Below the pieces are notes generated by a model. The model was not told the origin of the DNA and did no database searches. It saw only the letters and a program-made list of their open reading frames with translations. Position numbers and translations under genes: made by a program. Shown in pieces: positions 266 through 63,780 of a stretch of 64,000 nt of DNA. Position 1 is the stretch's first letter. Each line of letters opens with the position of its first letter. The DNA is taken from contig LCRX01000011.1 of NCBI GenBank assembly GCA_001004885.1, positions 2,000 to 65,999 of the forward strand, read 5' to 3'. This DNA is from Candidatus Magasanikbacteria bacterium GW2011_GWA2_56_11. GTDB lineage: Bacteria; Patescibacteriota; Patescibacteriia; Magasanikbacterales; UBA922.

Positions 266-270
266 ATTGT

Positions 271-3274: not shown

Positions 3275-3280
3275 ACCTGC

Positions 3281-6120: not shown

Positions 6121-6141
6121 TTTGGCTTACATGTTACTGGT

Positions 6142-6998: not shown

Positions 6999-7030
6999 AA
7001 AAATAATGGCTAATTTTAGCCATTATTTTC
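6999..7030. terminator. perfect 14-bp-stem hairpin (aaaataatggctaa / ttagccattatttt), likely terminator of the AT-rich islet operon
   Basis: Inverted repeat read directly; sits 3' of the 7086-7871 minus-strand gene. Confidence 0.4.
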
Positions 7031-7085
7031 GAGCTCGCATACAGGGACAGCTTCCGAATGTTTATTCAATATAATCTACTGTAAT

Positions 7086-7871: not shown

Positions 7872-7882
7872 ATTTTAATGAT

Positions 7883-9058
7883 CTATATTGTTAACTTTGC
7901 TACCAAAAGTGTTACTATGTTATTCATCGATTCTATAACTAACCCTATTGTCTTTTCGTCTCTTAACACAAAACCTTTGTGTGCGTAGTTACACCGTTTT
8001 TCATACAAACGATTGAACCAAGGAAGTAAATCTGGTTTAATAGCATTAATACCTCCTATTATATATTTTTTATTATCCGATCTGATATCCTTATCTGGAA
8101 CGAATAAATGTTCTAAACAACAATATAATAATAAAATTTTAGCACCTAAATCTGGTATTTGTGAGGCCGAACTTAAAATATCTATAGTAGGTGCAACATC
8201 GTTCATGTTGTTATGTTTCCAAGGGTTTTTTAAACTTTCAAATATTTTTTTATTATCAAGCATAAATTTTTCTATTCCGCCAAACGTCCTATTATCAAGC
8301 CACATTTTAGAAAGTCCTCGATACCCAAAAGAAAGAAAAAGACATCCATCAGGTATTTTAACCCACGATTCTTTCGAGTCTTCTTCCCAACAGTAGCAAC
8401 CCTGTGAATTTTCACCCAAAAACACAGAGCTTGTTGGTGCCGTAAGCGGTACTTCATTTTGTCCAAAATCCATTTGACAATGATATACAAAGCTGGCAAT
8501 TCTCAGCATGTTCAAGAATATTCTCATGTGTGATGCAGAATACCAATAGCAATATGTTTCTGATCCAAAACTACTAAAACCAAAGGATGGGGAACAAAAA
8601 AATCTTTTTGCATCACTTTGTTCATATTTTTTAAGCCCAGGTTGCAGTTGTTTGTATTTTTTCAATAGTTCGTCGTTATCAAAAAACGGTACAAGTGGTA
8701 TATCCATTTTTTTAAATAATCCATCAAAAAATTCCTGTGGACCAACATCAGTAGAAGGATTAATAACAGGAGTGCTAAAATGACTAATTTCTGTTATTAA
8801 TACTCTCTGCTTAATAGTTTGTTCTGCTAAATCAAAATATTTATTTATCACAGATTCAATCACATCTGTTTTTGACGCCCATCTAAAAATAAAAGAAATC
8901 TCGTGAGCACTAGAATGTCCTCCGACACGCTGATAATATTCATCTTCTGAATTGACAGCAAAAAACAACTTACATTTAAATAAGCCCCGTACGACATCCA
9001 TTGGTAATATTTTTAACTTCTTTTCTTCAAAAAAGTTCACATTCTTTAAAAAGCACAC
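7883..9058 (-). CDS. hypothetical protein (391 aa) with C-terminal Rx4H (RCNYAH) HEPN-like motif, AT-rich islet gene 1
   Basis: Long ORF in low-GC DNA. C-terminal …LYEKRCNYAHKG… fits the HEPN Rx4-6H signature. The true start may be the internal M at ~9001. Confidence 0.55.
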   Translation of the reverse strand: MCFLKNVNFFEEKKLKILPMDVVRGLFKCKLFFAVNSEDEYYQRVGGHSSAHEISFIFRWASKTDVIESVINKYFDLAEQTIKQRVLITEISHFSTPVINPSTDVGPQEFFDGLFKKMDIPLVPFFDNDELLKKYKQLQPGLKKYEQSDAKRFFCSPSFGFSSFGSETYCYWYSASHMRIFLNMLRIASFVYHCQMDFGQNEVPLTAPTSSVFLGENSQGCYCWEEDSKESWVKIPDGCLFLSFGYRGLSKMWLDNRTFGGIEKFMLDNKKIFESLKNPWKHNNMNDVAPTIDILSSASQIPDLGAKILLLYCCLEHLFVPDKDIRSDNKKYIIGGINAIKPDLLPWFNRLYEKRCNYAHKGFVLRDEKTIGLVIESMNNIVTLLVAKLTI

Positions 9059-9212
9059 TTATAAGATGTCTTGGCTGATAGTATTTTTCTTGTCTATACT
9101 GATCTTTTAAGGGCATCTGCATAGCCAAAGCCACCTCTTTGTCAGCTTCACTTTCTAATTTGGAATATACTTGATCACCAATTATTTCTTTTATTTTATT
9201 TAAAAAATTCAT
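9027..9212 (-). CDS. small hypothetical protein (61 aa)
   Basis: ORF overlapping the annotated start of the 391-aa gene; coding status uncertain. Confidence 0.25.
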   Translation of the reverse strand: MNFLNKIKEIIGDQVYSKLESEADKEVALAMQMPLKDQYRQEKYYQPRHLISVLFKECELF

Positions 9213-9217
9213 AGTTT

Positions 9218-9379
9218 TTATTTATCCATTTTCTCCCTATAATCAATTTTAGATAAAACATCAAAAGCCTCAACCAAATCATCAGCACACTTCTGCGCAT
9301 CCTCAAAACTTAATTTAACGCCGGTTTTCTTTTCATATATATCCTGAAATTCTAGGACGAGTTCGTCGGAAGGAGGCAT
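9218..9379 (-). CDS. small acidic hypothetical protein (53 aa; MPPSDELVLEFQDIYEKK…), below the ORF-track size cutoff
   Basis: Hand-translated; in-frame stop 6 codons upstream of the ATG. Lies between tRNA-Gln and the islet genes. Confidence 0.3.
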   Translation of the reverse strand: MPPSDELVLEFQDIYEKKTGVKLSFEDAQKCADDLVEAFDVLSKIDYREKMDK

Positions 9380-9579
9380 ATTATTGAAGTTAATGACTAA
9401 TCCCAGTTTACTCTAAAGCCAGATCTAGTTCAATAAGTTCGAATCCTACTGAGAGTGGTGGTTAGTGCATTGCATTTTTAGCCAAAAATTTATAGTGTAA
9501 AAACCACTTCCGAACCGATTGTTTCTTCTCTCAACTAAAAAGAAAAACAGACTATTTTTAGTCTGTTTTCTAAATCGAG

Positions 9580-9650
9580 CTCGGGGCCAGGGATTCGAAC
9601 CCCGATAGGCAGAGCCAGAATCTGCAGTCCTACCATTAGACGAGCCCCGA
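9580..9650 (-). tRNA. tRNA-Gln (anticodon CTG)
   Basis: Cloverleaf folded by hand: acceptor TCGGGGC/GCCCCGA, D-stem GTCT/GGAC, anticodon stem GCAGA/TCTGC with loop TTCTGGC, T-arm CGGGG-TTCGAAT-CCCTG; 71 nt. G37 is atypical. Confidence 0.75.
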
Positions 9651-9802: not shown

Positions 9803-10795
9803 CTACTGGTTGATAATATAGCTTTCCTCGAAATCCTTTAGAAATCTTTCGCTCACGACTTTTACGTCCTGCCAGCGCCAGCGGTGGCTCAGAAAAACTT
9901 CCTCATTGAGAATAGCGTGGCGGCCGCCGTTCTCGATCAGATAAACCGTAGGCGCGGTTTTCGTTTTTATTAGCGAATCGTTACCCAGCCGTTTTTCGTT
10001 GAGAACGGGCGAGTAGCCTTCCTTAACCTCGGTTCCGTCCGTGAAGCCGTCGCGATCCGTGTCTTTGTCCCAGAGCTTGGTGCCATAGGAGAGCTCCTCG
10101 GATTTGCTAAGACCGTCATTGTCGCCATCCGTAAACCGGGAGTCGCTGACAGCGGGCGAGGTGAAGACCGCTACCGGCTGCCCGGTGCTGGTCTTGCCCT
10201 CGGGCACAAAATCATGCAGGGCGCTGAGCATTGTAGCATAAGGGTAGCGATAGTCAAGTCCGCGGTTAATTCCCGGTTCGTTGGTGACAAATTCCTGGCG
10301 GTCGTCGTCGTAGCCTTTGATAACCACGGTGTGATAGTCCGGGCCGCCGTTTTTGAAGTAGGGGTTTTTGAGCGCTTTGCCGTGGACCAAGGCAATCACC
10401 GGGCGGCCTTTGTCCATTTCCGCCTTAATCTGGTCCAGGGTCGGCCGGCTCACTGAGTAGGCCTCCCAGGAGTAGAAATTATTGATGATTTCGGCGATCT
10501 GGGCCGCATTGGTGTCTTTGCTAAAGCCGAGTTTGGTGTCCTCAAGATAGATAACATGCTTGATGCGGTTGACGGCTTCGTTTTTTCCGATTGTTTTTTG
10601 CCGCCCGCCGCGGTAATAAGAATCCACCATGACGGTCGCCGCCTCTTCGCAGGCGTCTTCCCAGGGTTGTTTCCAGACTCCTTGCGGGGCCTGCGACGTG
10701 TAGGGTACGTCCAGGGTGTTCGCGGCCGCGGCCGCCGGCAAGGGAACTACGCCGGAGAGAAAGGCCGTGATCAGGGCCAGGGCTTGGTAAAACAT
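9803..10795 (-). CDS. secreted protein with C39-like peptidase domain and Asp-rich TSP3-like Ca-binding repeats
   Basis: N-terminal signal peptide; …HTVVIKGYDDD… papain/C39-like region; DGDNDGLSKSEE…DKDTDRDGFTDGTE repeats. Confidence 0.55.
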   Translation of the reverse strand: MFYQALALITAFLSGVVPLPAAAAANTLDVPYTSQAPQGVWKQPWEDACEEAATVMVDSYYRGGRQKTIGKNEAVNRIKHVIYLEDTKLGFSKDTNAAQIAEIINNFYSWEAYSVSRPTLDQIKAEMDKGRPVIALVHGKALKNPYFKNGGPDYHTVVIKGYDDDRQEFVTNEPGINRGLDYRYPYATMLSALHDFVPEGKTSTGQPVAVFTSPAVSDSRFTDGDNDGLSKSEELSYGTKLWDKDTDRDGFTDGTEVKEGYSPVLNEKRLGNDSLIKTKTAPTVYLIENGGRHAILNEEVFLSHRWRWQDVKVVSERFLKDFEESYIINQ

Positions 10796-10807
10796 AGGTT
10801 TTGCGAG

Positions 10808-12385
10808 TTAATGGATGACTTCGCCGCCCAGAGCCGCCGCCAGATTTTGCAGGTCGCCACCGGCCGCGGGCTCCGCGGGCAAAGCCGACAGCGTAACCTC
10901 GAGACTAAGTCGGCTGCCCAGTATATTTTGGAGGATCGATTCCAGCGTTTGGCGGTTGGCCGGCTGCGTCAATTTTTCGTGGTGAAACGAGTGGGCTACG
11001 CGGACAGTAACCGCTCCGTGTTTGGCCTCGCAGAGCTCGGCCGATTTGAGCAAAAAAAGCAGGGACGGCGATGATGTCTCCAGTTCAGCCAAGAATTTCG
11101 GCCAGGCGGCCTGGACTTCTTCTAATGTAACTTGACGGTGGTGGACCAGATCCTTTACACGCGTCGCGAGCGTTCGTTTGGCCGGCGTTTCCGGTTCGGC
11201 GGTTGCCGCCTGTGCCTCGGCTGTCTTGGCCGGAACCGGGTGCTCCGGGGCGGGAGAGGCTTTCGTCTCCCGACTCGCGCCGGGAGACGGCTCGTCCGCG
11301 CGCGCGGCCCATTCGATAAGCAACAGTTCAAGCGGCAGCTCCGGTACGGGCGAGGAGGGTACCTCCAGGGCTCGCGCCAGGGCGCGGTCAATCAGACGCA
11401 CCGTTTCGGCCGGCCGGAGGCGGCGGGCAATCTGGCTGAGTTCATCCGCCAGCTCGCCGCTCACGTCCATTTCTTCTTCGGCCAGCTTCGGGTCGGCCTG
11501 GTAGACCAGCACCAGGCGCAGTAGCTCGACGACATCCTTTCCGAATTGCGTAAAAAAAATGCCGGTCGAAGCCAATTCGTGCAATACCCTAAGGCCGTCA
11601 GGCACGTCCGACCCAGTGAGCGCGCGCACGTAGCGCATTTGGTCTTCGAGGTTGGTGGCCGGAATAACCAGGGCCGCGTCATCCAGGGTCAGGTGTTCGC
11701 GACCGAGAGCATTGAGCTGGTCAAACAGGCTGACCGCGTCGCGGACGCAGCCTTCGCTTTTTTTGACAATGCGCGCGAGCACCGCTTCGTCCGCCCGTAC
11801 GCCCTCTGCTTCCGCCAGGGTTTTTATATATTTAATCAGAATCTTGGCCGGGACCTTCTTGAAGGTAAAGCGCTGGCAGCGCGAAACAATAGTCGCGGGC
11901 ACCTTGTAAAGCTCCGTGGTCGCCAGGACGAACACCACGTGCGGCGGCGGCTCTTCGAGCGTTTTTAGAAGCGCGTTGAAAGCCGCGGTCGAGAGCATGT
12001 GCGCCTCGTCGATGATGAATACTTTATAGCGGGCTTTCGTGGGCTTGAACTGGACGTTTTCGATGATGTTTTGCCGGACATTCTCTACGCCGGTGTGGCT
12101 GGCGGCGTCAATTTCTATCACGTCGATGGCGCGCGAGGCGCTGATTTCGGCGCAGGCGGGACATTCGTTGCAGGGTTCGGCGCTGTCCGCGGCGCGGCGT
12201 TCGCAATTGAGCGCTTTGGCCAGTACCCGCGCGGTCGTGGTTTTGCCGACCCCTCTCGGACCGGAGAATAGATAAGCGTGAGCCGCGCGGTCCAGCTTTA
12301 GCTGGTTGGTAAGCGTAGTTACCACGTGCTCCTGGGCAATGATCGTGGCGAAAAGCTGCGGCCGGTGTTTGTGGTAGAGTGCCAT
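10808..12385 (-). CDS. dnaX: DNA polymerase III subunit gamma/tau
   Basis: AAA+ Walker A GPRGVGKTT, zinc module CxxC…CxxC, sensor motifs; 525 aa. Confidence 0.9.
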   Translation of the reverse strand: MALYHKHRPQLFATIIAQEHVVTTLTNQLKLDRAAHAYLFSGPRGVGKTTTARVLAKALNCERRAADSAEPCNECPACAEISASRAIDVIEIDAASHTGVENVRQNIIENVQFKPTKARYKVFIIDEAHMLSTAAFNALLKTLEEPPPHVVFVLATTELYKVPATIVSRCQRFTFKKVPAKILIKYIKTLAEAEGVRADEAVLARIVKKSEGCVRDAVSLFDQLNALGREHLTLDDAALVIPATNLEDQMRYVRALTGSDVPDGLRVLHELASTGIFFTQFGKDVVELLRLVLVYQADPKLAEEEMDVSGELADELSQIARRLRPAETVRLIDRALARALEVPSSPVPELPLELLLIEWAARADEPSPGASRETKASPAPEHPVPAKTAEAQAATAEPETPAKRTLATRVKDLVHHRQVTLEEVQAAWPKFLAELETSSPSLLFLLKSAELCEAKHGAVTVRVAHSFHHEKLTQPANRQTLESILQNILGSRLSLEVTLSALPAEPAAGGDLQNLAAALGGEVIH

Positions 12386-12394
12386 AAAGCGTAG

Positions 12395-12423
12395 TTGACA
12401 GTGATTAGTATACCGTATATTCT
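12395..12423 (+). promoter_or_regulatory. consensus sigma70-type promoter (TTGACA-17-TATTCT) driving the SWIB gene
   Basis: Hexamers and 17-nt spacer read directly; 118 nt upstream of the 12541 start. Confidence 0.4.
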
Positions 12424-12540
12424 ACGGGCGGTAAACACAGGGCTTTTGGGCGGCGCGAGTGCCGACTATTGCCTTGAGGGCGTGGCTGTGCTATACTGTG
12501 GATAACCGTTAAGTTAATTTACTTACTCTAATCTAGTGCT

Positions 12541-12801
12541 ATGCCTAGAAAAGCCAATCCGGCGCTTTTGAAGCCGCTCAAGGTTTCGGGGGAGCTCGCG
12601 GCAGTTATCGGTCCCGGGCCGATGGCGCGCGGACAAGTGATGAAAAAAATTTGGGAATACATCAAGGCGCGTAATTTGCAGAATCCCAGCAACAAGCGCA
12701 ACATCCTGGCGGATGAAAAGCTTAAGCCGCTTTTCGCAGGCAAAGCAGAGGTCTCGATGTTCGAGATGACCAAGCTCATCTCCAAACACTTGTCCGATTA
12801 A
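12541..12801 (+). CDS. SWIB/MDM2 domain protein
   Basis: 86 aa; …LKPLFAGKAEVSMFEMTKLISKHL… matches the SWIB fold consensus. Confidence 0.8.
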   Translation: MPRKANPALLKPLKVSGELAAVIGPGPMARGQVMKKIWEYIKARNLQNPSNKRNILADEKLKPLFAGKAEVSMFEMTKLISKHLSD

Positions 12802-12880
12802 GCGGCCGCAAATAGACCAAGCAATCAAACATCCCGACTCAGTCGGGATGTTTTTAATCCGGGTTTTGGTTGCCAGCGCC

Positions 12881-13561
12881 TTAATTGCCGATAATATTTT
12901 CTACCGCGCCCCAATCGCTCGCTCCGTTTTCCGGTACGAGTAGTACGATCTGGTCGCCGGATTTGCCCTGGTAGAAGCTCACCGAGGCGGTAAGCACTTT
13001 ATAGCGGCGGCTGCCGACGGCGGCGAACCAGCGGCGGGTGTCCGGATTTTGTTCCAGGATCCCGATAACGCGGGCGCGGGCGGCCGGGCCGATTTGTTTA
13101 TAAATAAACGAACCGGAGCTGGTAATCGTGAGCTTCATAATGTCGCCCTCTACCAGCTTGGATTTGCTGGCGTAATTGGGCGGGACATGGTACTCCTGCC
13201 CGTCCGGACCGACCATTTTTTCGCCGTTGAATACTCCCTCGATGACACGCTCGCCGCCGGCCGCGGCCGTTTCGTGATAATCCGGCGCGCGGCTCGGGGC
13301 GGGGCTGCCGCCGTCTAAGAGTCGCAGCAGGGCGTCTATTTGGTCTTTTAGCGCGTACAGGCCGCGGCGAATAGCCTCTTGTTGGGGCGGAGCAGCCGGC
13401 ATATCGTCGGCGAATAGATCGCTCAGACCGGCAACCGGCAGGGACGGTAAGTCCGAGTCGGGGGGCGCCGCGGCAACCGCGCGGTCGGTTCGCTTGGAGT
13501 CCGGTTGATGGCCTTTGAATTGTTCCTCTTTATCCTGGAGGAGCGTGGCGAGGGCATCCAT
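12881..13561 (-). CDS. hypothetical protein (226 aa), last gene of the VirB4-like cluster
   Basis: Pro/Ala-rich linker followed by a beta-rich C-terminal domain; no family assigned. Confidence 0.55.
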   Translation of the reverse strand: MDALATLLQDKEEQFKGHQPDSKRTDRAVAAAPPDSDLPSLPVAGLSDLFADDMPAAPPQQEAIRRGLYALKDQIDALLRLLDGGSPAPSRAPDYHETAAAGGERVIEGVFNGEKMVGPDGQEYHVPPNYASKSKLVEGDIMKLTITSSGSFIYKQIGPAARARVIGILEQNPDTRRWFAAVGSRRYKVLTASVSFYQGKSGDQIVLLVPENGASDWGAVENIIGN

Positions 13562-13595
13562 ATGTATGGCGGGAAATTATTTTTGGGAGTAGGTT

Positions 13596-14327
13596 CTAGG
13601 CTGGTACGTCGGATATGGCTTCATCGGTCCGGGCATGCTCCTCGATATGGAATTTTTTATCAACCATAATTTTTATGGCGATGAATATGGCCATGAATAC
13701 CGAGTGTAAAATTGATTTCAAAAAAGGCGGTTGGCCGCTCAGGAGCAGAGTGAGGCTGAATCCCGCCAGTCCGACGGTGGTAACGCCGATCAAAATCGTA
13801 AAGTGCAGAATAATAATCCGTTTGTAGGGCGCGAACATCAGGGAGATAAAATCCCGGCGCTTGTACTCGCCGCCCTCGATAAAATTTTGCTGGTATGACA
13901 GGCCGTGGCTCACGAGAAAACCTACCGCCACTGCCAGCAATCCCAGCCGGTCGGCCCAGGAATTACTCTCCATGGCCAGCGCGCCAATTAGCGCGGGCAG
14001 AGCTTGAAAGAGGAAAAACCAGTAGACAAACAGGAATCCGCTGAAATGCAGGATAAAGAAAGCGGTGGCGAACACTCGCGTCTGGGTAGCGCGCGCCGGC
14101 ACCGAGTCCGGCCGGCCAGCGCCGTTTTCCGACGGCAAGTCGGGAACAGCCTCGGCGCGCAGCATCTTCAAGACCGTGTAAAATCCGATTACCGCGGTCT
14201 CCCACCAGTAGGCGTAGAGGAGTGCCAGTACGTTCCAGCGCAGGAGAACCACTCCCAAGAGGGGTATAAGATTGGCGTATACCAGTGTCCGCGCACTTTT
14301 TAAACGGCGAGTTCCGGCTGGAGTCAC
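13596..14327 (-). CDS. polytopic membrane protein (243 aa, ~6-7 TM)
   Basis: Multiple hydrophobic helices; lies immediately downstream of the VirB4-like ATPase. Confidence 0.6.
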   Translation of the reverse strand: MTPAGTRRLKSARTLVYANLIPLLGVVLLRWNVLALLYAYWWETAVIGFYTVLKMLRAEAVPDLPSENGAGRPDSVPARATQTRVFATAFFILHFSGFLFVYWFFLFQALPALIGALAMESNSWADRLGLLAVAVGFLVSHGLSYQQNFIEGGEYKRRDFISLMFAPYKRIIILHFTILIGVTTVGLAGFSLTLLLSGQPPFLKSILHSVFMAIFIAIKIMVDKKFHIEEHARTDEAISDVPA

Positions 14328-14348
14328 ACGGCGGCAGTGATAAGTAAA

Positions 14349-16814
14349 TTACAGTGTTGCCTCGATCATGTCTGTTTTGCTGTTCTGTTCGCCGCCTCCC
14401 AGCCGGGTTCGTTCCATGATCTCGGCTTCCACGATCCGGCGGTCGCGTCCGTACTTGAGGCGCGAGAGCTGCTTGATAGCGCTTCCCAGGGGTTTGTTAC
14501 CCTTTTCCGGGGGGTAGGTAAGCATGCTGAACGGTTTGGACGCTTCGTTGTCTATCAGCAGCTTGACGTAATAGGAATATTGCGGCGGGTTAAGGAGGTC
14601 GTAGGCGCCGAAAGTGGGGGCGAACTCCTTGGAGAGAATGTCGGCGTCATCCGGGCCGATGCGTCCGGTGCAGAAGGTGCCGACGTTGCCGAGGACCGCG
14701 TCGCGGATTGCGGAGCGGCCTTTGTCGTCCGTGAGCTGCCCCATGTATTGGTCCTTGCGCGTCGCCTCGTCCGAGTCGGCCCGTCCCATGGCGGCCATTT
14801 GAAGTTTGGCCACAATAATCAGTCCCAGAAGTTTGGCATTCACTTCGCCGGTCGTGCCCTTGGCCAGATTGACCAGGAGGATTTTTTCCTGGTCCATCAC
14901 CTCGCGGAAGTCAAAGCCGGATTTTTGCTGGCCCATGATGTTTCGCATCATTTCGTTTTCCACGAAACGGCCGACCTTGGAGATAAGATAGCCGAGCATC
15001 TCCGATTTGTGAAAGTCGCTCGTTTTGGCCATTTCTTTTTCCCAAAAGGCGCGCACGATCGGGTCTTTCAATTTTTTAAGGTAAATTTTTACGTAGTTGT
15101 CGTCCGTGAACATGCGCGGAATATCAATGACCGTGCCGGCGTCATTGATATCCGCCATGAGGGTGAGCATGACATTGCGCATGTTGTGCTCGAACATTGG
15201 GCCGATCATTTCCGGCGGAAAGAGCTTGTAAAAAATAGCGATCATTTCTTGCACCGCGAAATCTTTCTGGTCGTCCGTTTTGGTTTCGAGCATATTAAGC
15301 CCTATCGGCCGCTCGAGGTCCGACGGATTGAAGATGATTACGTCGTCGGCGCGATTTTTGGGCACGTGCTGCAGCACATCTTCGACCAGGTCGCCGTGCG
15401 GGTCCACAATGCAGACACCCTTGCCGTTTTTGATATCCTGCCGCGCCAGATTGGAGATGAGAACCGATTTTCCGGTACCGGATTTGCCGATAATATAAAG
15501 GTGCCGCCGGCGGTCGGCGTCTTTCATGTAAACCGGCGTGTCCGCGCCGCGGTAGGGCACATGGCCGAGCAGCAACCCGACTTTGGGCAGATTGGGCGGC
15601 GGCGGCGCGCGGCGGCCCGTGAGCCACCGGATGTTGGGCGCTTCGGTGGAGTGCAGCGGCAGATGCCAGAGGCTGGCCATTTCTTCGGTATTAACTACGA
15701 AGCCGCGGCTTTCGTGGAACGAACGGTAGATAAAATCCCGGATGACCGATTGCTGGGTGCGCGGCACGAGCGCGGAAAATTCATTGCCGTAGCGGTAGAG
15801 ATTGTACTGGCTGAAAGAATGGATGATATTGTCCAAGTTTTGCCGCGCCAGCTCCGCGTCCGCGGACACGCTGATCAGGCGCAGGGTTACTTGCAGCCCG
15901 CCTTTGGAGAGCTTTTCTTCGATGCCTTTCAACATTTCGTCTTCCATGGCCGAGAGCTGGTAGGCCGGTTTTTCGTTTTGCTTGGTCGGACTCAATTGTT
16001 CGCCTACGCCGCGCGCGACGAGGCCAAAGGCGTGCCAGAAGCGGTTTTTGTGGATGACGTTCTCGAATTTTTTCCCCTGGCGCACCTCGCGCACTATCCG
16101 CACGCCTTTGCGCCGCCACCGTTTAGGCGCTGGACGGGTGACGATTTGCACCGCGGCCGAACTGTCGGCTTCGTGAATTTTGGACAAGACGTTGAGGATG
16201 GACGACAGCGGGTCGGAGTCCATTTTTTTGTAAGTGCGAAAGGGGAGAACCGTAGTTTGCTTATTGGTCAGATAGGCGCCGACAATCTTGCTTTCGGGCG
16301 TAAAAATATTGTAATCGGTCATTTCCTCGATATGGGCATACGGGTATTGGGCGTTGATTTGCTGTTCGATAAACGCGCGGAGCTTGTGCGGCACCGCCAC
16401 GTAAAAATAGATCAAGTTTTTTTCCACGACGATTTCAAAAGCCAAATGATCGTTGCGCCCGCGCAGCCAGCTGAGAAAGCCCTGGTGCTGCTTGAGTCCG
16501 GCCACTGTCGAGAAGAGGGTTTCGGTGATGCCAATTTCTTCCTTGATTTGTTCCAGCCTGTCCTCGGCCGCCCCCTGGTTGGTGCCTTCGGAACGTTTTT
16601 CTTTCGGGACCTGGATTTGCAGTACCATCCGGTCGAACGCGTGCCGGGCTTTGTAGAGCGTGCGGGTGATGCTGCGGATCAGAAAGAGCGCGCCGGCGAC
16701 CAGGAGTATGCCCGACAGGAGGAGGATAACAGTCAAAAAATATTCTTCATTTGATAAATTGGTTGCCGGAGGCAGAGAGGCGGCGGCGAACTGGAGCATA
16801 GAGCGTGATTTCAA
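14349..16814 (-). CDS. membrane-anchored VirB4/TraC/TrbE-family (DUF87/HerA-FtsK-like) secretion ATPase
   Basis: 821 aa; N-terminal TM helix; Walker A GKSGTGKS; hydrophobic Walker-B-like stretch. This architecture is frequent in CPR T4SS/pilus-like loci. The antisense 805-aa ORF is a shadow. Confidence 0.7.
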   Translation of the reverse strand: MKSRSMLQFAAASLPPATNLSNEEYFLTVILLLSGILLVAGALFLIRSITRTLYKARHAFDRMVLQIQVPKEKRSEGTNQGAAEDRLEQIKEEIGITETLFSTVAGLKQHQGFLSWLRGRNDHLAFEIVVEKNLIYFYVAVPHKLRAFIEQQINAQYPYAHIEEMTDYNIFTPESKIVGAYLTNKQTTVLPFRTYKKMDSDPLSSILNVLSKIHEADSSAAVQIVTRPAPKRWRRKGVRIVREVRQGKKFENVIHKNRFWHAFGLVARGVGEQLSPTKQNEKPAYQLSAMEDEMLKGIEEKLSKGGLQVTLRLISVSADAELARQNLDNIIHSFSQYNLYRYGNEFSALVPRTQQSVIRDFIYRSFHESRGFVVNTEEMASLWHLPLHSTEAPNIRWLTGRRAPPPPNLPKVGLLLGHVPYRGADTPVYMKDADRRRHLYIIGKSGTGKSVLISNLARQDIKNGKGVCIVDPHGDLVEDVLQHVPKNRADDVIIFNPSDLERPIGLNMLETKTDDQKDFAVQEMIAIFYKLFPPEMIGPMFEHNMRNVMLTLMADINDAGTVIDIPRMFTDDNYVKIYLKKLKDPIVRAFWEKEMAKTSDFHKSEMLGYLISKVGRFVENEMMRNIMGQQKSGFDFREVMDQEKILLVNLAKGTTGEVNAKLLGLIIVAKLQMAAMGRADSDEATRKDQYMGQLTDDKGRSAIRDAVLGNVGTFCTGRIGPDDADILSKEFAPTFGAYDLLNPPQYSYYVKLLIDNEASKPFSMLTYPPEKGNKPLGSAIKQLSRLKYGRDRRIVEAEIMERTRLGGGEQNSKTDMIEATL

Positions 16815-56897: not shown

Positions 56898-57368
56898 ATG
56901 GAGTTTAAAATTTACGCCAGCGCCGTTATTGAGCAGAACGGCCGAATATTGTTGGTGCAGGAGGGGAAGGCAGATAACTTTGAGAAGTGGAACCTGCCCT
57001 GCGGCCACCTGGAATTGGCCGAAATGCCGCTAGACGGCGCCAAGCGTGAGACATTTGAGGAAACGGCGCTCACGATTGAGGTTACCGGATTTCTCGGAGT
57101 CTATAGCTCTGTCGGCGCGAATCATTCGATCCGGTTCGTCTATTGTTCAAACGAATTCGCCGGCGAGGCAAAGCCGGGCGACGAGATATTGGCCGTAAAG
57201 TGGTTTGAGCCGGTCGAACTCCGGAACTTGGATGAACAGCGGTTCGTCAGCCCGCTTGTACTTGAGGCCGCCGTCGCTGATTACGTTAACGGTCGCCAGT
57301 TTCCGGCCACGGTTGTGCGCAAGATAACAATGGACAACAAAATTAAGTACCATGGAGAGGTCGCATAG
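56898..57368 (+). CDS. NUDIX hydrolase
   Basis: Nudix box G(x5)E(x7)REVFEETAL-like (…GGHLELAEMPLDGAKRETFEETAL…). Confidence 0.8.
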   Translation: MEFKIYASAVIEQNGRILLVQEGKADNFEKWNLPCGHLELAEMPLDGAKRETFEETALTIEVTGFLGVYSSVGANHSIRFVYCSNEFAGEAKPGDEILAVKWFEPVELRNLDEQRFVSPLVLEAAVADYVNGRQFPATVVRKITMDNKIKYHGEVA

Positions 57369-57442
57369 TTGGCCTAGTGCGCACGCTTGGAAAGCGTGTA
57401 TACCGAAAGGTATCGAGGGTTCGAATCCCTCCCTCTCCGCCC
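57354..57442 (+). tRNA. tRNA-Ser (anticodon GGA), long variable arm
   Basis: Acceptor GGAGAGG/CCTCTCC, 3-bp D-stem, anticodon loop TTGGAAA, variable hairpin TATACCGAAAGGTATC, T-arm GAGGG-TTCGAAT-CCCTC. The 3' terminus reads GCCCA. Confidence 0.85.
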
Positions 57443-57461
57443 ATTTCGGTCGCGAACGAAA

Positions 57462-58490
57462 CTAGGAATCTTGGCTCTGCTTAGCCAAGGCTGAGGGCGC
57501 CGTGCACCTGTCGTCCGGCTCGGGTAGCCCGGGTGTTGCCCACCCGTTGCCCAAGAATGGTACATCCGGTGCCACAAGCACACGGACCGCTTCGTACAGC
57601 GAAGACGGCGCGAGGTGAGCATAGCGTTCGGTGACTTGGACCGTGCTGTGTCCTAGGAGAATCTGCACGGAGCGAATCGGTACTCCGCGCGAGACGAGCT
57701 GCGACGCGAATGTGTGCCTCAGTACGTGCCAGCCTATCGGGCGGACACCTGCCCGGGCACACGCCCGGTACAGGAGTTTCGATGTGGTCGCCTCAGGAAT
57801 CGGCGTTCCGTCCCGACGAGGGAAGACGAGTCCGGATGTGCCCCGCCGGCTATCGAGAGCGCTCGCGAGGTCCGGGGCCATCGGGATGTGGCGAATGCGG
57901 TTGTTCTTCGGCGTTCCAAGAATCCCGCGCACGATGGACCGCTGCACTGTTATCAGGTGCGTCGTGAAAGTAATGTCGCGCCATTCGAGCGCGGTCAGCT
58001 CGCCTCGGCGCATTCCCGTGCGCAGTGCGCAGAGGATCATCGCGTGGGTCTGCGCATCTGGTGCTGCCGCGAGCAGCCGAGTGCAGTCCTCCGGGCTTAG
58101 ATAGTTGTCTTTGGGAGGAGCGGTCTTGAGCCAGTGCATGCGAGGGCTCCGCTCGAGTTCCTCCCACTCCTCTGCAGCGGATAGGGCGGCATGGAGTACC
58201 GTTAGATGGTTGTTGATCGTCTTCGCGCACAGGCCGTCAGCCAGGCGGTCTGCCTTGTAGCGCTCGATCCGCGCGAGAGTGATCTCGGCCAAGACTAGCG
58301 ACCCGAAAGCAGGAACGAGGTACCGGGCGAGGATGCCCTCCTTGGCGCGCACCGTTGACGGGCGGTTGTTCGTGCGAGCGTAGATGGTCATCCAGCGTGC
58401 CGAAAAGGGCCCGAACTGGATCAGGTCTTGTGCGCGCCGTTCAAGTGGCTCTCCGCGCGCCAGGCGTCCTCGTCTTGGGGGGCGAGCCAT
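57462..58490 (-). CDS. int: tyrosine-type site-specific recombinase/integrase
   Basis: R…HxxR…Y catalytic pattern (WHVLRHTFAS, LLGHSTVQVTERYAHL); adjacent to tRNA-Ser. Confidence 0.85.
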   Translation of the reverse strand: MARPPRRGRLARGEPLERRAQDLIQFGPFSARWMTIYARTNNRPSTVRAKEGILARYLVPAFGSLVLAEITLARIERYKADRLADGLCAKTINNHLTVLHAALSAAEEWEELERSPRMHWLKTAPPKDNYLSPEDCTRLLAAAPDAQTHAMILCALRTGMRRGELTALEWRDITFTTHLITVQRSIVRGILGTPKNNRIRHIPMAPDLASALDSRRGTSGLVFPRRDGTPIPEATTSKLLYRACARAGVRPIGWHVLRHTFASQLVSRGVPIRSVQILLGHSTVQVTERYAHLAPSSLYEAVRVLVAPDVPFLGNGWATPGLPEPDDRCTAPSALAKQSQDS

Positions 58491-58851
58491 CGGTTGCGGG
58501 AGCTCCCGTCGACGACGGCGGCGCGCAGTCGCCCGCGGCGCCCGGGCCCTCGTCGCCCGACAGTGCCGACGCCTCCGGCTCGGGCTCGTCGTCGAAGAGC
58601 CCTCGCAGCTTCTCGGAGCTCGAGCCGAACAGCATCTTCCTCAGCCGCCGGATCGAGGCCCCCTTGGTCTCCAACTCCCGGGTCAACGTGGTCAGGGTCC
58701 CTACAGCGCCTGCAAGCGTCTGATGGTCCTCGTCGCTCAGCACTGGGCGGACACGCTCGACGATGGCATCCAGATCCTCGGCGGAGACCTCCTTGCGCAC
58801 GGCCGGCCGCGGCGGCGGGCGCTTCTGGTCCGGCTTCTTCGTTCGCTTCAT
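58444..58851 (-). pseudogene. IS66-family transposase (TnpC) N-terminal fragment
   Basis: Tail of ORF 58441-59730 reads MKRTKKPDQ…LRKMLFGSSSEKL…, the leucine-zipper / FGxxSEK motif of IS66 TnpC N-termini. No zinc-finger or DDE region follows. It runs into the integrase gene. Confidence 0.45.
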
Positions 58852-59726
58852 CCCACCCCCGACAGCCGCTCCCGGAAGTCTCCGGTCAGCGGGTAGCCCA
58901 TCACCTCTTTGAGCGGACGGTTCGCTTGATGCGTCTGGTCGTCCTTGCCGCGGCCCGTGGTCAGGCCGAGGCGGACCCAGTTCGCCGCTCGATAGCACGT
59001 GCCCTTGAAGCGGCCCGGATCCACGAAGGTCTCCAGCCAGTAGACGGGATGTCCATACAGCCGCTCCCACTCCCGGGGCACCCGCTGGGCCATCTGACCG
59101 AGCAGGTGCGAGGCCAGGTGCTTGACCTCGACCCACGGAAGGATCAGGAATCGGCTGTTGTAGGCCAACAAGCGGATGTTGGCGCGGCGTGCCGCCCCGG
59201 ACCACCCGATGTACTGGTCGCGCGGACCCAGGTGACGCGGCGCCGAGCTCCACGTCAGGCACGCCAGGGGCCGGCCTCCGGCGCTCACCAGGAACTTCAG
59301 GTGCTCCCCGACGGGTTGCACGTAGCCCAGGTAGTGGTGGCCCTCCAGCAGGCCGTCGAACATGGGCTCGCTCTCGCTGCGCCGCACCTGCTCGAAGCTC
59401 AGCTCGCCCAGCTCCGAGAGCCGGCAGCGGACAGGCGTCTGGTCGACCGTCACCGGCCGACGACGCACGCGCCGGGCCAAGGGATTGGGTGGCACCTGCC
59501 GCACCGCCGGAAGCTCGATGTGGCCGCCACGGTGCAGCTCCAGCATCAGCCCGCGGCAGACCATGTCGCGAAGGCAGCCGTTGGTCTGCCTCCAGTCCCA
59601 GGCTTCGCAGAGCTTCGTCGACAGCACGCGCCGACTGGCGGAGGGGTGGGCCGCGATCAGCTCCTGGATGAAGCCGACCTCCTGCCGTGTGACCGTCCGC
59701 CCTCGATACTCGATGACCGCATCCAT
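58848..59726 (-). CDS. DUF4338-like protein (tentative; same Pfam family as Druantia DruA)
   Basis: ~293 aa from MDAVIEY; motif …VYWLETFVDPGRFKGTCYRAANW… recalled as DUF4338-like. Its TGA overlaps the ATG of the TnpC fragment (ATGA). Confidence 0.4.
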   Translation of the reverse strand: MDAVIEYRGRTVTRQEVGFIQELIAAHPSASRRVLSTKLCEAWDWRQTNGCLRDMVCRGLMLELHRGGHIELPAVRQVPPNPLARRVRRRPVTVDQTPVRCRLSELGELSFEQVRRSESEPMFDGLLEGHHYLGYVQPVGEHLKFLVSAGGRPLACLTWSSAPRHLGPRDQYIGWSGAARRANIRLLAYNSRFLILPWVEVKHLASHLLGQMAQRVPREWERLYGHPVYWLETFVDPGRFKGTCYRAANWVRLGLTTGRGKDDQTHQANRPLKEVMGYPLTGDFRERLSGVG

Positions 59727-60007
59727 GCACCGCGAGTACCGTTGGTGCGACTGGAACGCAAGAAGAAAAGCGACGTCATGTTCACGCGGCCGGAGCCACC
59801 CGTCGCCACACCGCCGCCGCATTCGTTTGGCTCGGATCGCCGCCACACAGCAGCACCTGGAGCTCGTGCGCCTGCAGCGCGGTGACCGGCTCCGGCCCGC
59901 AGCACCGAGCGGCAGACCTGGGCCATCCCGTCGATGCCGCGCCGAAAGTCCACCGGCTGGATGGCCACCAGCACCCGCATCTGCGGCGTGATCTGGATCA
60001 CCGGCCG
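59727..60007 (-). pseudogene. IS66 Orf2 (TnpB)-like fragment, degenerate
   Basis: …PVIQITPQMRVLVAIQPVDFRRGIDGMAQVCRSVL… matches the IS66 TnpB N-terminal consensus. Downstream sequence is out of frame or degenerate. Confidence 0.4.
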
Positions 60008-60441
60008 CGGCTCCAGAACGCCCGCGCTAGCCCGACCACGTCCACCGCGGTCCCCGCGCCCAGTCGCACCATCATATGCGCCCCGTCGCCGCTCGACAGC
60101 TCGACGACGATCCCGGCGTCGCTCCGCGGGGTCCACGGCGAAGTCCCGACCTCGCCGAGGAGCTGCGCCCCCTCCAACTCCACGAACGTGCCAGGCAGGG
60201 CCACGCCCGTGCTCTTCGAACCCTGGCCCTCGCCGAGCCGACTCTTGAGGGAGCCGTAGCCCACATCCACGAACTGCGAGACCCGGTACACACCGAGCCT
60301 GCGCGCAAGCGCGACCGCCTCCTCCCAGAGCGGCTCCGGCATCCGCACGCCCCTCCGCCGATGCCGCCGCCAGTCGGCGACTGCACGACGAGCTGCCTCG
60401 AGCCGCTGCTCGAGCACGCCGGCGTCCTTCGTCCCTCGCAT
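59998..60441 (-). CDS. IS66 Orf1 (TnpA)-like HTH protein (tentative)
   Basis: 147 aa; helix-turn-helix-like …PEPLWEEAVALARRLGVYRVSQFVDVGYGSL…; sits immediately 5' of the TnpB-like fragment, as in IS66 elements. Confidence 0.3.
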   Translation of the reverse strand: MRGTKDAGVLEQRLEAARRAVADWRRHRRRGVRMPEPLWEEAVALARRLGVYRVSQFVDVGYGSLKSRLGEGQGSKSTGVALPGTFVELEGAQLLGEVGTSPWTPRSDAGIVVELSSGDGAHMMVRLGAGTAVDVVGLARAFWSRGR

Positions 60442-62084
60442 GGCAGGTGATCCCTCCGAAACGTCCTGGCGGAGAGACTACCCGGCTCTCAACGGCAGTT
60501 CATGCAGGCCTGCCGAACGGACACCCCTGGCCGCGATCGCGGTCGCTGTTCGGGTGCACATGAAGGCGAAGCCGAGTCCAGACGCGGGCGGCCAGCCGAA
60601 GCCGCCCGGCGACCCGACCCCGGGCGACGAACGCCCACCCGAGCCGCCGAAGCCCTGGCAGCACCCGTACGCGTAATCCGAATGGGCGAAGGCTGGCGGG
60701 AGCCATGCGCTGGCTATCGCGCCGCCGAGTTCGCGCAGATGACCGCGACGCTGCTGGCACCGGCGGGACCCTCGACGCAACGAACCGAGGGCCCGGACGA
60801 TCCGTGACGGCGAGTCGGAGCGCGGGATTTCGCTTGCGGCTGGTGAGGCAGCGGCGGAAGATCGGTCCGTGGTCTCCGCCCGAGGAAAGGAGGTGGTGCA
60901 GTAACCCGAAGGTGCTGAATCGGGTGCATGCCAACGAGGGTGGATAGCTTGCACCGGCACGACCGCATGTCGTGCGGACTCGGTCGTGTGTCGCCCATCC
61001 GCGTCGGAGGGCGACGGCGGCTGTGCTTGTTCTGCGCCGCTTTCACGACGAGCCGGTGCTCCCTAAGACGTGCAACGCGTCCGAGGTCGCCCTATTGAGC
61101 TGCCGGGGGCGACGATCTCGCTCGTATCCCGTGACCGGACACACTCGGCACGGCCACGAGTTCGGCACTCCACCTTCCTGGCCGCTACACCAGCCCGAAA
61201 GCGCTACGGCGTCTCTATGCGCTGGCGGGTGTTGAGCCGCTGGGTTTGCCTCCAGGCAACTGCCGTGGGTGAGCCCGCGCGGGAGACGCTGCGCGCGCCG
61301 ACGATGGCGCGGACCGAGTGCGCTCGATCGGACGGGGAGCCGGCGGCCCCAGGAAGAGCGCCGGCAAGTTCTTGACCTGGCCCAGCCAGGGAATCGGTGC
61401 TCGCGATGGGCAGGCAGGAGGTGACTTCCACGCTGACCACGTGACACGAGCCAACACGGCGCCGCCGAGCGCTGATGCACTCCCGGCAGCGGGCTTCCTG
61501 CTTGCTCACGAGCACCGAGCACAAGATCTCGCGGCCTTCCTGCCGGAGGGCGTCACGGCCGACGCGCACGAAAACCAGCACCTGGGTAGGTGCTGGTGAG
61601 TAGTTTGGGGGCTGGTCCACGCGGTCGTCTGACCAGAATCAGAGGGATCTCGCCGCAGGCGGCGAACCCGTGCGCCCGGGCCTCCGGTACCGCCTGGCTT
61701 CGCTGGGTGGGACGGCGCGCCTGATGTGAGTAGAAGTCACACCAGGCGCGGCCGGCTGGACAAGCGTGTGCGCACGAGCGCCCTGGTAACCATCCCCGGG
61801 GGCATGCGGTTGAGCCTGAACGAACCAGGCCCGTCCTGGGTGTGCACGTGGAATCGCCTGGCGCAGCTTCGTAACGATAGCACATTGCGCCAAAAATGTC
61901 AATGATTCCATCAGTCTCGCTCGCGGCTGGCTGGAGGGACCGGAGTTGCGCGGCGTCGCGGGCAAGCCGGTTCAGTGCATCGTGTACGGCGAGAGGCCGG
62001 AGCAGCACCGATAGATGCCACGGTGACTGGAAGGGCGGGCAGCTCGTGGTAGGCCGCGATGAGGGTTCGAAGCCAGTCCCTGAG

Positions 62085-62123
62085 AGCCCGCACTGAATAC
62101 TTAGTATCGGAAGACCCGAGTGC
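62085..62123 (+). repeat. 38-bp direct repeat A flanking the Fic cassette
   Basis: cccgcactgaatacttagtatcggaagacccgagtgc; 37/38 identical to 63326-63363. Confidence 0.7.
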
Positions 62124-62131
62124 AGTCCGTT

Positions 62132-63184
62132 TTATATTTTTTTATATCTGGTCGTTCGTCCCTGTCCGATCCGTTCGATCCTTTTCAAGCGCAATAAAAC
62201 ATCGAGCGCCTGTGAAACCGTCGGTCTGGCAACCTTTGTTGCATGTACAATTTCAAGCGGCGTTGTCTCTACCACAGTTTCAAGATAGCGCCACACCAGA
62301 AGCTGCTTCGGAGACAATAATTTTTCGATATTCTCTCGGGAGAGCAAATCGATAGCTTGCTCTGCTTGGGCAAGTGAAATTTTTAGAAAAAAATCAAGCC
62401 ATGCGGTGACATTTTCCGCGTCAGTATTCAGCGTTTTTTGGCTTTTCCGTAAGGCGATGTAATACTCCGTTTTCGCTTCCTCAATCAATTTTTCGTGGGA
62501 GACATACGGCACGTATGCATACCCGACGCGGAGCATGAGCAGATTCGCGAGGATGCGCGACAGTCGGCCGTTGCCATCCTGGAATGGGTGGATTGCCAGA
62601 AATTCTACAAGAAAATTTCCGATAATAACGAGCGGGTGCACTTCTTTCATCGTGAGAGCTTTGATTGTCGAATCCACCAATTCCTGCATGCGCTTTGGCG
62701 TGAGATACGCCGGGGTTGTTTCAAAAATCACCGCAATCGGCTTGCCGTCCTCGTCATACATCTCCACGGTATTTTCTCCTTTTTTATACTCGCCACGATG
62801 TCTCTCGTCTTTGGACGAATACTTGAGCAGCTCCTTATGCAAATGTTTAATCGTGCTTTCGGTAAAGGGAATGTGCTTCCAAGAATTAAAGATATTTTCC
62901 AATAATTCATAGTATCCCTTCACCTCTTGCTGATCGCGGTCGGCAAATTTTTTTATCGAGAGACCCCGCATTAATTTTTCCACGTCCTCATCGGACATCC
63001 TTGCTCCTTCAATACGCGTTGATGCTCCGGTAGAGGTAATCAAAACCGAGCGCTTCAATCTGCCAAGGGCTTGCGGGTTTAATTTCGCGCCGCCGATCCA
63101 TTGACCTTTGAGATGGTCAATTTGACTGATGAGCGCCCATATGGACTCTGGTGTGTGAGAAATTCTTTTATTGAAGTTAAGCAT
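62132..63184 (-). CDS. fic: Fic/DOC-family protein, class II (N-terminal inhibitory SxxxEG motif) with C-terminal winged helix
   Basis: Fic motif HPFQDGNGRLSR; inhibitory motif STRIEG near the N-terminus; ~42% GC. Confidence 0.85.
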   Translation of the reverse strand: MLNFNKRISHTPESIWALISQIDHLKGQWIGGAKLNPQALGRLKRSVLITSTGASTRIEGARMSDEDVEKLMRGLSIKKFADRDQQEVKGYYELLENIFNSWKHIPFTESTIKHLHKELLKYSSKDERHRGEYKKGENTVEMYDEDGKPIAVIFETTPAYLTPKRMQELVDSTIKALTMKEVHPLVIIGNFLVEFLAIHPFQDGNGRLSRILANLLMLRVGYAYVPYVSHEKLIEEAKTEYYIALRKSQKTLNTDAENVTAWLDFFLKISLAQAEQAIDLLSRENIEKLLSPKQLLVWRYLETVVETTPLEIVHATKVARPTVSQALDVLLRLKRIERIGQGRTTRYKKI

Positions 63185-63325
63185 AGTTAATCTTATGTAT
63201 TAACTATATGAGATTATATATGATTGACAGACGCACGTCAAGGCGATTAAATTTGATTAATGATTTTCTCTCAAACATTAGCCAAAATGAGGGCGGGGCG
63301 ACCCGAGTAGTTCGAGCCCACTAGT

Positions 63326-63363
63326 CTCCGCACTGAATACTTAATATCGGAAGACCCGAGTGC
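63326..63363 (+). repeat. 38-bp direct repeat B flanking the Fic cassette
   Basis: ccgcactgaatacttaatatcggaagacccgagtgc. Confidence 0.7.
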
Positions 63364-63780
63364 CGCTCGGGTTTCCTCCCCTCGTCCGTCCACCCGTCGG
63401 TGGCGTACCAGTTTCGCGGTTGGTATTCCGTTGAGAAATAATTTATATCCACAGGGATATTAAGAGGCAAGGTCTTGATAGTCTTTGTGGCTCTCCCTTC
63501 TGTGGTTCTAATAATTTGCCTAGTTTTAGCCTTTACACTGGGTACTACTAACTAATATATTTTCTCCGATTATCCATTTCAGAAAAAATCAGCCACCCGT
63601 CTGTCTTGACAAAAGATGGTTTTTAGTGTAGAATATTTTATTCGGTATTATGCCGATGTTGTTCCTTCCAACCGCTTAGCCGCTCGGATTAGGCGTTCTC
63701 TGTATCAGATAATCTGGTGCCAAGAGCGCCTGACCCGCGCCCTAGGCAAGCGCGACCCAAACCGTAGAAGGACCAGAACC

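Follow-up and report, generated by a model that had tools for sequence, protein, structure and literature searches.

INTRODUCTION

Single-gene defence systems like SoFic spread widely, yet for the most part there is no explanation of how genes of this size are transferred. SoFic, a class II Fic protein, has been reported to be an anti-phage system consisting of one gene (Millman et al., bioRxiv 10.1101/2022.05.11.491447; on its regulation, see PMC12249575), and wild-type EcSofic is toxic and is neutralised by a 47-amino-acid (aa) protein encoded downstream of it (PMC12249575). Here we analyse a SoFic-type Fic gene in a stretch of 64,000 nucleotides (nt) from Candidatus Magasanikbacteria bacterium GW2011_GWA2_56_11 (GenBank assembly GCA_001004885.1, contig LCRX01000011.1, positions 2,000 to 65,999; the whole stretch is referred to as the window), where the gene lies between two direct repeats that contain remnants of a tRNA-Ser 3' end. 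The window Fic resembles SoFic in matching its PADLOC profile, in having an intact catalytic motif, an N-terminal inhibitory motif ahead of the core and a C-terminal DNA-binding-like tail, and in standing as a single gene in a variable, defence-rich neighbourhood. It differs from SoFic in being a distant relative (44 bits against an NCBIfam cut-off of 550), in its Patescibacteria host and in leaving no space for a gene like that of the EcSofic antitoxin AS1.

Among described mobile units, cis-mobilizable elements (CIMEs) keep the attachment sites attL and attR without integration and transfer genes (Pavlovic 2004; Bellanger 2011; reviewed in PMC5704250); they arise by decay of integrative conjugative or mobilizable elements, vary in content and are mobilised in cis by an element sharing their attachment (att) sites (PMC5704250). 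The window unit is like a CIME in being att-like at both ends, in having no integration or transfer genes and in standing in tandem with islands at a tRNA 3' end. By contrast, the minimal content of its family (Fic plus promoter) and its two ends recur in several genomes; an integrase-bearing parent element was not found, and the adjacent integrase island has different ends. The ssrA islands of Dehalococcoides also stand in tandem, bounded by 20-bp repeats of the ssrA 3' end and with the serine recombinase DsiB in most units; a conserved short motif unlike the target gene lies directly upstream of each repeat, and some units are without an integration module (PMC3146451). The window locus shares with these islands the tandem units, the tRNA-like 3'-end repeats, a motif beside the repeat (here box B, described below) and integrase-less units, whereas its repeat reaches 32 nt past the tRNA into sequence of the element itself, and an integration module was not found in it. 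It shares with integron cassettes the serial arrangement of single-gene units, with recombination sites between one unit and the next. Unlike integron cassettes, it is without attC structure, IntI, attI and Pc, has its own promoter and carries tRNA-derived sites.

In the reading developed here, the defence gene would travel without a recombinase, with two conserved ends and a copy of its tRNA target, in the Patescibacteria, whose mobile elements are poorly known. If true, this would provide a testable vehicle of defence-gene exchange, with defined att sequences, a predicted circle of 1,240 bp and, in the two ends (trailer and box B), a search image by which further elements and their helper could be found, and would explain part of the hypervariability behind tRNA-Ser in these genomes.

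RESULTS

Composite tRNA-Ser junctions on both sides of the Fic gene

The only strong direct repeat reported by a repeat finder is the pair bracketing the Fic gene (Table 1), 36 nt in length with one mismatch (35/36). An earlier note on this DNA, made from the letters of the window, had given the pair as 37/38 identical at 62085-62123 and 63326-63363; the repeats themselves stand, while the identity does not, the two added bases being mismatches. A 27-nt core of the repeat occurs twice in the 64 kb, both times in these repeats, against 0 expected from shuffles. Because the pair is present in at least seven independently assembled groundwater-metagenome contigs (L001-L005, L316 and L317; L numbers are our labels for contigs and loci), it is no assembly artefact.

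Each repeat is a composite junction, consisting of a tRNA-Ser 3'-end remnant followed by a 32-nt trailer that ends in GACCCGAGTGC. The left remnant, J1, and the T-arm of the tRNA-Ser(GGA) gene have an 11-mer in common, and the right fragment, J2, matches the last 21 nt of this tRNA at 14 of the 21 positions in the same register, from the T-loop to the discriminator base. In the variant contig L006, whose left flank is unrelated to the window, an exact tRNA-Ser 3' end (21/21) occupies the position of J1 and is followed by the same trailer and the Fic gene. The direct repeats thus contain the 3' end of the target tRNA, a property of tRNA-targeting islands, and the earlier proposal of an att-like cassette gains from this tie. 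Tandem duplication was rejected as the origin of the repeats since the sequence between and outside them is unique, which also removes the larger duplication that the earlier note had set against its own claim. A target-site duplication by a transposon or insertion sequence was rejected too: there is no transposase and there are no terminal inverted repeats, the repeats vary from 31 to 60 nt across homologous loci, and at one of those loci (L020, see below) the two repeat copies differ at synonymous sites only.

Fic is the only open reading frame (ORF) between the repeats. The ORF has a G+C content (GC) of 45.9% and the cassette as a whole one of 45.0%, compared with 57.1% for the host and 67.9% for the neighbouring island (57444-62087). 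The low GC noted earlier is therefore real, although the figure of about 42% given for it was too low. Together with the promoter listed in Table 1, a feature that had been proposed beforehand, this supports the view that the cassette is foreign DNA, set apart by its composition, and a module of one gene driven from a promoter of its own. We hold with moderate confidence that window positions 62061-63363 form an att-bounded, integrase-less Fic islet of 1.24 kb, as one member of a series of foreign modules in tandem behind the 3' end of tRNA-Ser(GGA).

Table 1. Features of the Fic cassette and its surroundings (window coordinates).
Feature	Position	Strand	Remarks
tRNA-Ser(GGA)	57353-57443	+	ARAGORN; Rfam 56 bits; integration-hotspot anchor
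Tyrosine recombinase (phage-integrase family)	57462-58490	minus	Pfam Phage_integrase 7.2e-30; separate high-GC island
Junction of integrase/DruA-like island with truncated IS66 + Fic cassette	59892/59893		GGTGACCGGCTC / CGGCCCGCAGCACC
J1, degenerate tRNA-Ser 3'-end remnant	62061-62091	+	GAGGGTTCGAA..CCCGC; left of cassette
Left direct repeat	62088-62123	+	last 4 nt of tRNA remnant + 32-nt trailer 62092-62123 (ACTGAATACTTAGTATCGGAAGACCCGAGTGC)
Fic gene	62132-63184	minus	350 aa, SoFic-type class II; C-terminal winged-helix-like tail
Fic promoter with operator-like repeats	63186-63241	minus	ATCATATATAATCTCATATAG..ATAAGAT repeats overlap -10 box and leader
Fic promoter	63241-63213	minus	TTGACG-17-TATAAT; promoter scan
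Box B, conserved distal arm	63274-63310	+	AACATTAGCCAAAATG-N5-GGGGCGACCCGAGTAG; directly 5' of J2 tRNA fragment
J2, tRNA-Ser-like 3' fragment	63311-63331	+	TTCGAGCCCACTAGTCTCCGC; 14/21 vs tRNA-Ser 3' end
Right direct repeat	63328-63363	+	second trailer copy, 63332-63363
Hairpin	63349-63376	+	GGAAGACCCGAG-TGCCG-CTCGGGTTTCC; right-trailer end + flank; not at left copy

Conserved element ends in other genomes

Across homologue loci the trailer follows the consensus TGACAATTTnnTATCGnnnAGACCCGAGTGCC, and the element trailer ends in ..TATCGGAAGACCCGAGTGC. A trailer homologue lies directly 3' of a real tRNA beside close Fic homologues in L007 and L094 (both tRNA-Ser CGA) and in L095 (tRNA-Trp), and the trailer is also found beside tRNAs near Fic in L098 and L103. 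Since the other tRNAs of the first three loci and of the window have no trailer behind them, so that it occurs only behind Fic-adjoining tRNAs, the trailer belongs to the element and not to the host. A profile built from six trailers gave a new match beside tRNA-Ser(TGA) in L103/L104 (1.4e-9), two new sites in L098, one of them beside tRNA-Ser(GGA), and a match in the viral contig L185 from IMG/VR (2.6e-10), where a near-identical trailer follows a tRNA-Ser-like 3' end with a different cargo. When the viral contigs were scanned with a relaxed trailer pattern, 10 of the 11 matches were due to chance (about 14 had been estimated beforehand) and L185 alone was real.

The other end of the element is marked by box B. 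In the window, L099 and L103 (alignment A3), its pattern AACATTAGCCAAAATG-N5-GGGGCGACCC-N3-G separates the Fic promoter from the distal tRNA fragment, at a conserved spacing of about 107-112 nt from the Fic ATG (counted by eye). A search of the viral contigs with the box B pattern was discarded as too unspecific (>120 matches). In addition, the motif GACCCGAGT occurs three times in the window, always at the junctions, and it flanks the J2 tRNA fragment on either side. In L099 and L103 a native terminator, not a trailer, follows the distal tRNA fragment, and these two loci would represent the simple single-element state, in the order tRNA, trailer, cargo, Fic, box B, tRNA fragment and host flank. 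As the distal fragment of the window has a second trailer where L099 and L103 have the terminator, the window arrangement is read as a tandem. Comparison of these loci makes it fairly probable that the islet belongs to an element family with two defined ends, the trailer and box B (AACATTAGCCAAAATG..GGGGCGACCC), which targets tRNA 3' ends, mostly of tRNA-Ser.

Fic is the sole constant gene of this family, and the family is without an integrase. No element-encoded integrase stands beside the att site in the window cassette or in L094, L095, L098, L099 and L103, and none was found inside or near the latter five elements over several kb. Cargo proteins common to different elements were not found either. 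The cargo that was seen in related elements consists of conflict-system genes, namely a TOTE-type primase-helicase and a PRiA4_ORF3 protein (L103 5334-7490; L099 5068-5679). In L185 (positions 1-6809; UViG_3300004210_000377) the cargo comprises a metallo-beta-lactamase-fold protein, a Cas2-like protein, an M78 peptidase and a C5 methylase. This contig also has a large serine recombinase beside a terminase, 5.4 kb away, which is a possible lead to a helper element.

A proposed tandem history and its weighing

For the right repeat, an origin as the tRNA-proximal end of an older downstream element that belongs to this family is a better reading than a simple duplication caused by Fic insertion. 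According to this model, a circular form with box B, a tRNA 3' copy and the trailer would recombine at the tRNA 3' end in a Campbell-type manner and displace an earlier tRNA 3' end already bearing the trailer of an earlier element of the family. The outcome would be two near-identical trailers in direct orientation, each behind a tRNA-Ser 3' remnant, and later islands inserting at the same tRNA would push the cassette away from tRNA-Ser. Recombination between the two junctions, by a recombinase acting in trans or by RecA, could then release a circle of 1,240 bp. The predicted circle junction reads ..CACTAGTCTCCGCACTGAATACTTA[A/G]TATCGGAAGACCCGAGTGCAGTCCGTTTTATATT, with box B, tRNA fragment, trailer and AGTCCGTTTTATA in that order, and the predicted junction of the deletion product reads ..CTGAGAGCCCGCACTGAATACTTA[A/G]TATCGGAAGACCCGAGTGCCGCTCGGGTTTCC, with the left part of J1, trailer and CGCTCGGGTTTCC. 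Mobility of the islet is suggested by its anatomy and by comparison with the other loci.

Several observations weigh against this history. The physical link between the cassette and tRNA-Ser in the window depends on a join at 59892/59893 that other contigs contradict (see below). The tRNA-like parts of J1 and J2, which had been described earlier as T-loop-like extensions of the repeats, are real but weak; they are degenerate, and they do not resemble each other significantly. Trailers of different genomes are only about 60-70% alike (by eye, alignment A2), compared with 35/36 between the window pair, so that either the older element was a very close relative or the long identity is itself the crossover region. 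The neighbouring integrase island is without the GACCCGAGT motif, and a cognate recombinase was not found. Neither an excised circle or its junction nor an empty site with a single repeat, both of which the earlier note had proposed to look for, was found, and a scan of Joint Genome Institute (JGI) metagenomes for empty sites and other repeat contexts returned the same locus only (L087); nor was a single-copy trailer found by an unoccupied tRNA-Ser. When the right-hand neighbour was looked up through its cysteine (Cys)-rich secreted protein, all contigs retrieved were short and ended ahead of the junction.

In a rival reading, the two repeats would be the tRNA-proximal ends of two neighbouring elements and form no matched att pair, the 1.24-kb unit being a fixed, immobile remnant. 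The distal ends without a trailer in the single-element loci L099 and L103 agree with such a remnant, as do the missing circle and empty site and the lack of a recombinase in the unit. However, two direct 36-nt repeats beside tRNA remnants can serve for deletion by site-specific or homologous recombination, however they arose, and exactly such a state defines the cis-mobilizable elements (PMC5704250). Furthermore, contig L006 stops exactly where the right repeat begins on its left side (window 63326), suggesting heterogeneity in the population. We regard an immobile remnant as rather unlikely and continue with the tandem att-bounded islet as the preferred reading.

The Fic protein, its promoter and its regulation

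The window Fic ORF matches Pfam Fic (PF02661) at 6.6e-15. Its catalytic motif, of the form HxFx(D/E)GNGRxxR, is HPFQDGNGRLSR at residue 199, and an inhibitory motif of the form (S/T)xxxE(G/N) is found as STRIEG at residue 55 of the same chain, N-terminal to the Fic core, as had been claimed for this 350-aa protein. The best match among solved structures is PDB 8uqu, a Fido-domain protein (1.2e-34), to the corresponding stretch of which STRIEG aligns. The PADLOC SoFic profile PDLC03963 is matched at 9.4e-41 over nearly its full length (Fic residues 44-347 versus profile positions 53-349 of 361). By contrast, SoFic chains in the PDB match at 3e-4 only, and the NCBIfam SoFic equivalog NF046030 gives 44.2 bits over a part of the model, far from its cut-off of 550. 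Judged by these scores, the window Fic is a distant SoFic relative and no orthologue of SoFic from S. oneidensis. Its C-terminal winged-helix-like tail is supported by weak helix-turn-helix (HTH) hits.

The inhibitory motif had led to the claim that the protein is self-inhibited and needs no antitoxin. The motif stands, and SoFic-type proteins do have the inhibitory helix, but the claim has to be qualified by the toxicity of wild-type EcSofic and its neutralisation by the 47-aa partner (PMC12249575). In the window cassette, the gap of 8 nt between the Fic stop codon and the left repeat leaves no room for a small downstream gene like AS1. A small conserved ORF (..H(E/K)xF(L/M)I(A/T)HKMFVKV..) that is not present in the window cassette follows Fic in two relatives (L094 6162-6311; L103 5063-5350) and may be the counterpart of the EcSofic AS1 antitoxin.

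The layout of promoter and repeats is kept upstream of the Fic homologues in L007, L094, L095, L097, L098, L099, L101 and L103. At window positions 63186-63225 the operator-like repeats consist of two copies of ATCTCATAT and then an inverted copy. Such repeats were also seen upstream of Fic in L007, L094, L095, L097, L099, L103, L020 and L012, with lineage-specific equivalents among the homologues, for example CTCACAT and ATGGGTG; L020 and L012 have a second operator-like copy downstream of Fic, just inside the right repeat. The arrangement suggests autoregulation of Fic through its C-terminal winged helix. Most likely, the Fic protein acts as an abortive-infection toxin, which would be kept off by the N-terminal inhibitory helix together with autorepression via the DNA-binding tail.

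Fic loci in relatives and in other phyla

Fic homologues at 72-79% identity are abundant in the Patescibacteria (Uhrbacteria, Komeilibacteria and Kerfeldbacteria), and more distant ones occur in many phyla. Because the family stands at other loci in the relatives, the gene was not vertically inherited at the window locus, contrary to the vertical conservation in place that the earlier note had listed as its second possible objection. A tRNA lies within 600 nt in 6/19 close homologues (p ~5e-4, taking 50 tRNAs per Mb). Of 10 cases with an adjacent tRNA, 9 have its 3' end towards Fic; most of the tRNAs are tRNA-Ser, Alphaproteobacteria included. A simple search for tRNA 3' repeats across Fic in the relatives found none; the distal copies are degenerate and become visible only via the conserved arms. 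Nothing relevant was found in the literature on Fic with direct repeats or tRNA integration, or on 'mobile mystery protein'.

For a survey of flanks, the 800 nt upstream of Fic were compared with the 800 nt downstream at 69 loci, the window included. Direct repeats of 31-60 nt and 89-100% identity flank Fic at 8 of these loci, compared with 4/218 shifted control positions (Fisher p = 0.0017); the four control matches are one second Fic gene with a perfect 31-nt repeat, two AAA_14-DUF4143 genes and one paralogue similarity. In viral contigs such repeats flank 1/28 Fic loci. The loci of other phyla at which the 3' end of an adjacent gene or tRNA is repeated are L020, L080, L012, L070, L057, L074, L084 and L141. 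The repeats are locus-specific, being the 3' ends of a tRNA-Ala (L070), an erpA/iscA-like gene (L020), an ftsK-like gene (L080) and a Mur-ligase gene (L012), whose second Fic gene (2927-3976) has its own perfect 31-nt repeat. No integrase was found near the repeat-flanked Fic genes of other phyla, the neighbours being housekeeping genes. The last 45 nt of the erpA/iscA-like gene are present twice in L020; between the copies there are 5 differences, every one synonymous, and the stop codon is intact in both, indicating that one copy evolved as coding sequence elsewhere. This pattern fits integration of the Campbell type, which would carry the target 3' end along, and not a fresh target duplication.

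It is possible, albeit doubtful, that there is a widespread class of minimal integrative elements, 1.2-3.7 kb in size and defined by SoFic-type Fic genes; such elements would be recombinase-less, carry a copy of the target-gene 3' end and move between genomes; in the strongest version, the Fic-winged-helix (wHTH) protein joins in the recombination. Equally tentative is the list of targets in such a class, namely tRNA-Ser and other tRNAs in the Patescibacteria, and, in other phyla, tRNA-Ala or genes of the erpA, ftsK and mur types.

The step beyond this would be that the Fic-wHTH protein, alone or with host factors, itself drives integration and excision at the 3' ends of tRNA and protein genes in the manner of an integrase. 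Fic is present in every family member and always by box B at a fixed distance, no integrase lies within several kb in five relatives, and in other phyla single Fic genes stand, again integrase-less, between the housekeeping-gene repeats just described, one locus having a second such Fic. In the circles inferred for L020 and L012, moreover, operator-like repeats would lie on both sides of the repeat. Nevertheless, we know of no Fic enzyme that cuts or joins DNA, and by sequence the protein is an ordinary SoFic-type AMP-transferase. The GACCCGAGT boxes are unlike the operator repeats, and the low count in viral contigs also speaks against such an activity. Two paralogous AAA_14-DUF4143 ATPase genes of L016 (1679-3521 and 7071-8722) each lie between direct repeats of 28-30 nt; repeat-flanked single-gene units are therefore not confined to Fic, and the mechanism need not involve it. 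A recombinase role of Fic is accordingly judged very improbable.

Spread by RecA-dependent homologous recombination, with a fragment or circle that includes a copy of the target 3' end and no site-specific recombinase, would account for the absence of a recombinase from every element, for repeats of 31-60 nt, near the RecA minimum, and for the synonymous differences of L020, one copy having evolved as coding sequence in another host. But the conserved arms (trailer, box B and paired GACCCGAGT boxes around the tRNA fragment) resemble the protein-binding sites of a site-specific system, and the tRNA fragments J1 and J2 have drifted so far from the resident tRNA that homologous pairing with it would not be efficient. 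We consider spread by RecA alone improbable, less so than a recombinase role of Fic, and retain the att-bounded islet as the reading for the window.

The tRNA-Ser hotspot, the integrase island and the assembly join

Contigs that contain the NUDIX gene and tRNA-Ser have different occupants behind the tRNA. The integrase island follows in L088, L090 and L091. In L089 a 5.6-kb island (10545-16199, corresponding to window 57441/57442) with CCGCC bounds and a type IIG restriction-modification gene, and without an integrase, sits between tRNA-Ser and the integrase. Together with the different left neighbour of the cassette in L006, these islands show that occupancy of the hotspot varies. The right arm of the L089 island, GTTTCGG..TTTCGGGACACCAYCACCGCC, was seen to recur at L001 5426-5462, beyond the right end of the window, where it adjoins a gene pair of HTH_17 and a small Fic/Doc protein.

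The earlier note placed the cassette next to an integrase/IS66 island. L088 and L090 follow the window up to 59892, where L088 enters other genes and L090 ends, whereas L001, L316 and L317 match it from 59893 and run leftwards into an IS66 tnpB gene (Pfam TnpB_IS66 6.9e-26). The join at 59892/59893 is thus contradicted by five contigs and supported by no other assembly, and it is probably a chimeric join or a rare rearrangement in the source assembly. From these alignments, the adjacency of the cassette to the truncated IS66, present in every assembly, is solid, while that to the integrase, which depends on this join, is not. The ORF at 58848-59846, which had been grouped with IS66, matches DruA/DUF4338 (2.3e-27) and is no IS66 transposase. 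An 8-nt stretch, CGGCCCGC, recurs near the breakpoint in L088. The IS66 part consists of a truncated tnpB (59893-60136) and unannotated ORFs up to about 61680, where several contigs break.

With respect to the integrase itself, it reaches 54.5 bits with the integron-integrase model TIGR02249 (cut-off 265) and 34.9 bits with NF011946 (cut-off 435), and it is also far below the Xer cut-offs. It is not the evident partner of the Fic cassette. These scores bear on the other form of cassette that had been suggested, a gene cassette of the integron type, with attC sites. In its favour, there is one gene between repeats, and in the window a tyrosine recombinase lies less than 5 kb away. However, folds of both junctions on both strands are no better than shuffles (z -0.6 to -1.2), an Rfam E-value scan of the junctions found nothing relevant, and the repeats are not imperfect palindromes but copies in direct orientation; the cassette has a promoter of its own, and the integrase is both far below the IntI cut-offs and doubtfully linked. 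The hairpin at the right trailer has its stem in the minimum-free-energy and centroid folds. With no attC structure and no adjacent IntI, the integron cassette is refuted on the features tested, and its probability is next to negligible.

Other variable sites in the window

Two further sites drew attention. At 63592-63593 the window is without a 98-nt segment (GTCTGTACATTACTCC..GGTACGGTGCC) that almost all other assemblies of the locus have, and in L316 a variant of 111 nt takes its place; the site lies in an AT-rich non-coding stretch upstream of the gene for the Cys-rich secreted protein, and the difference could represent a small mobile insert or a deletion. At 7000-9600, a stretch of low GC (32-40%) with two ORFs (261 and 391 aa) of no known function abuts the 3' end of a tRNA-Gln (9579-9650, minus strand). 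No repeat of the tRNA-Gln end was found there, and the stretch may be another integrase-less islet.

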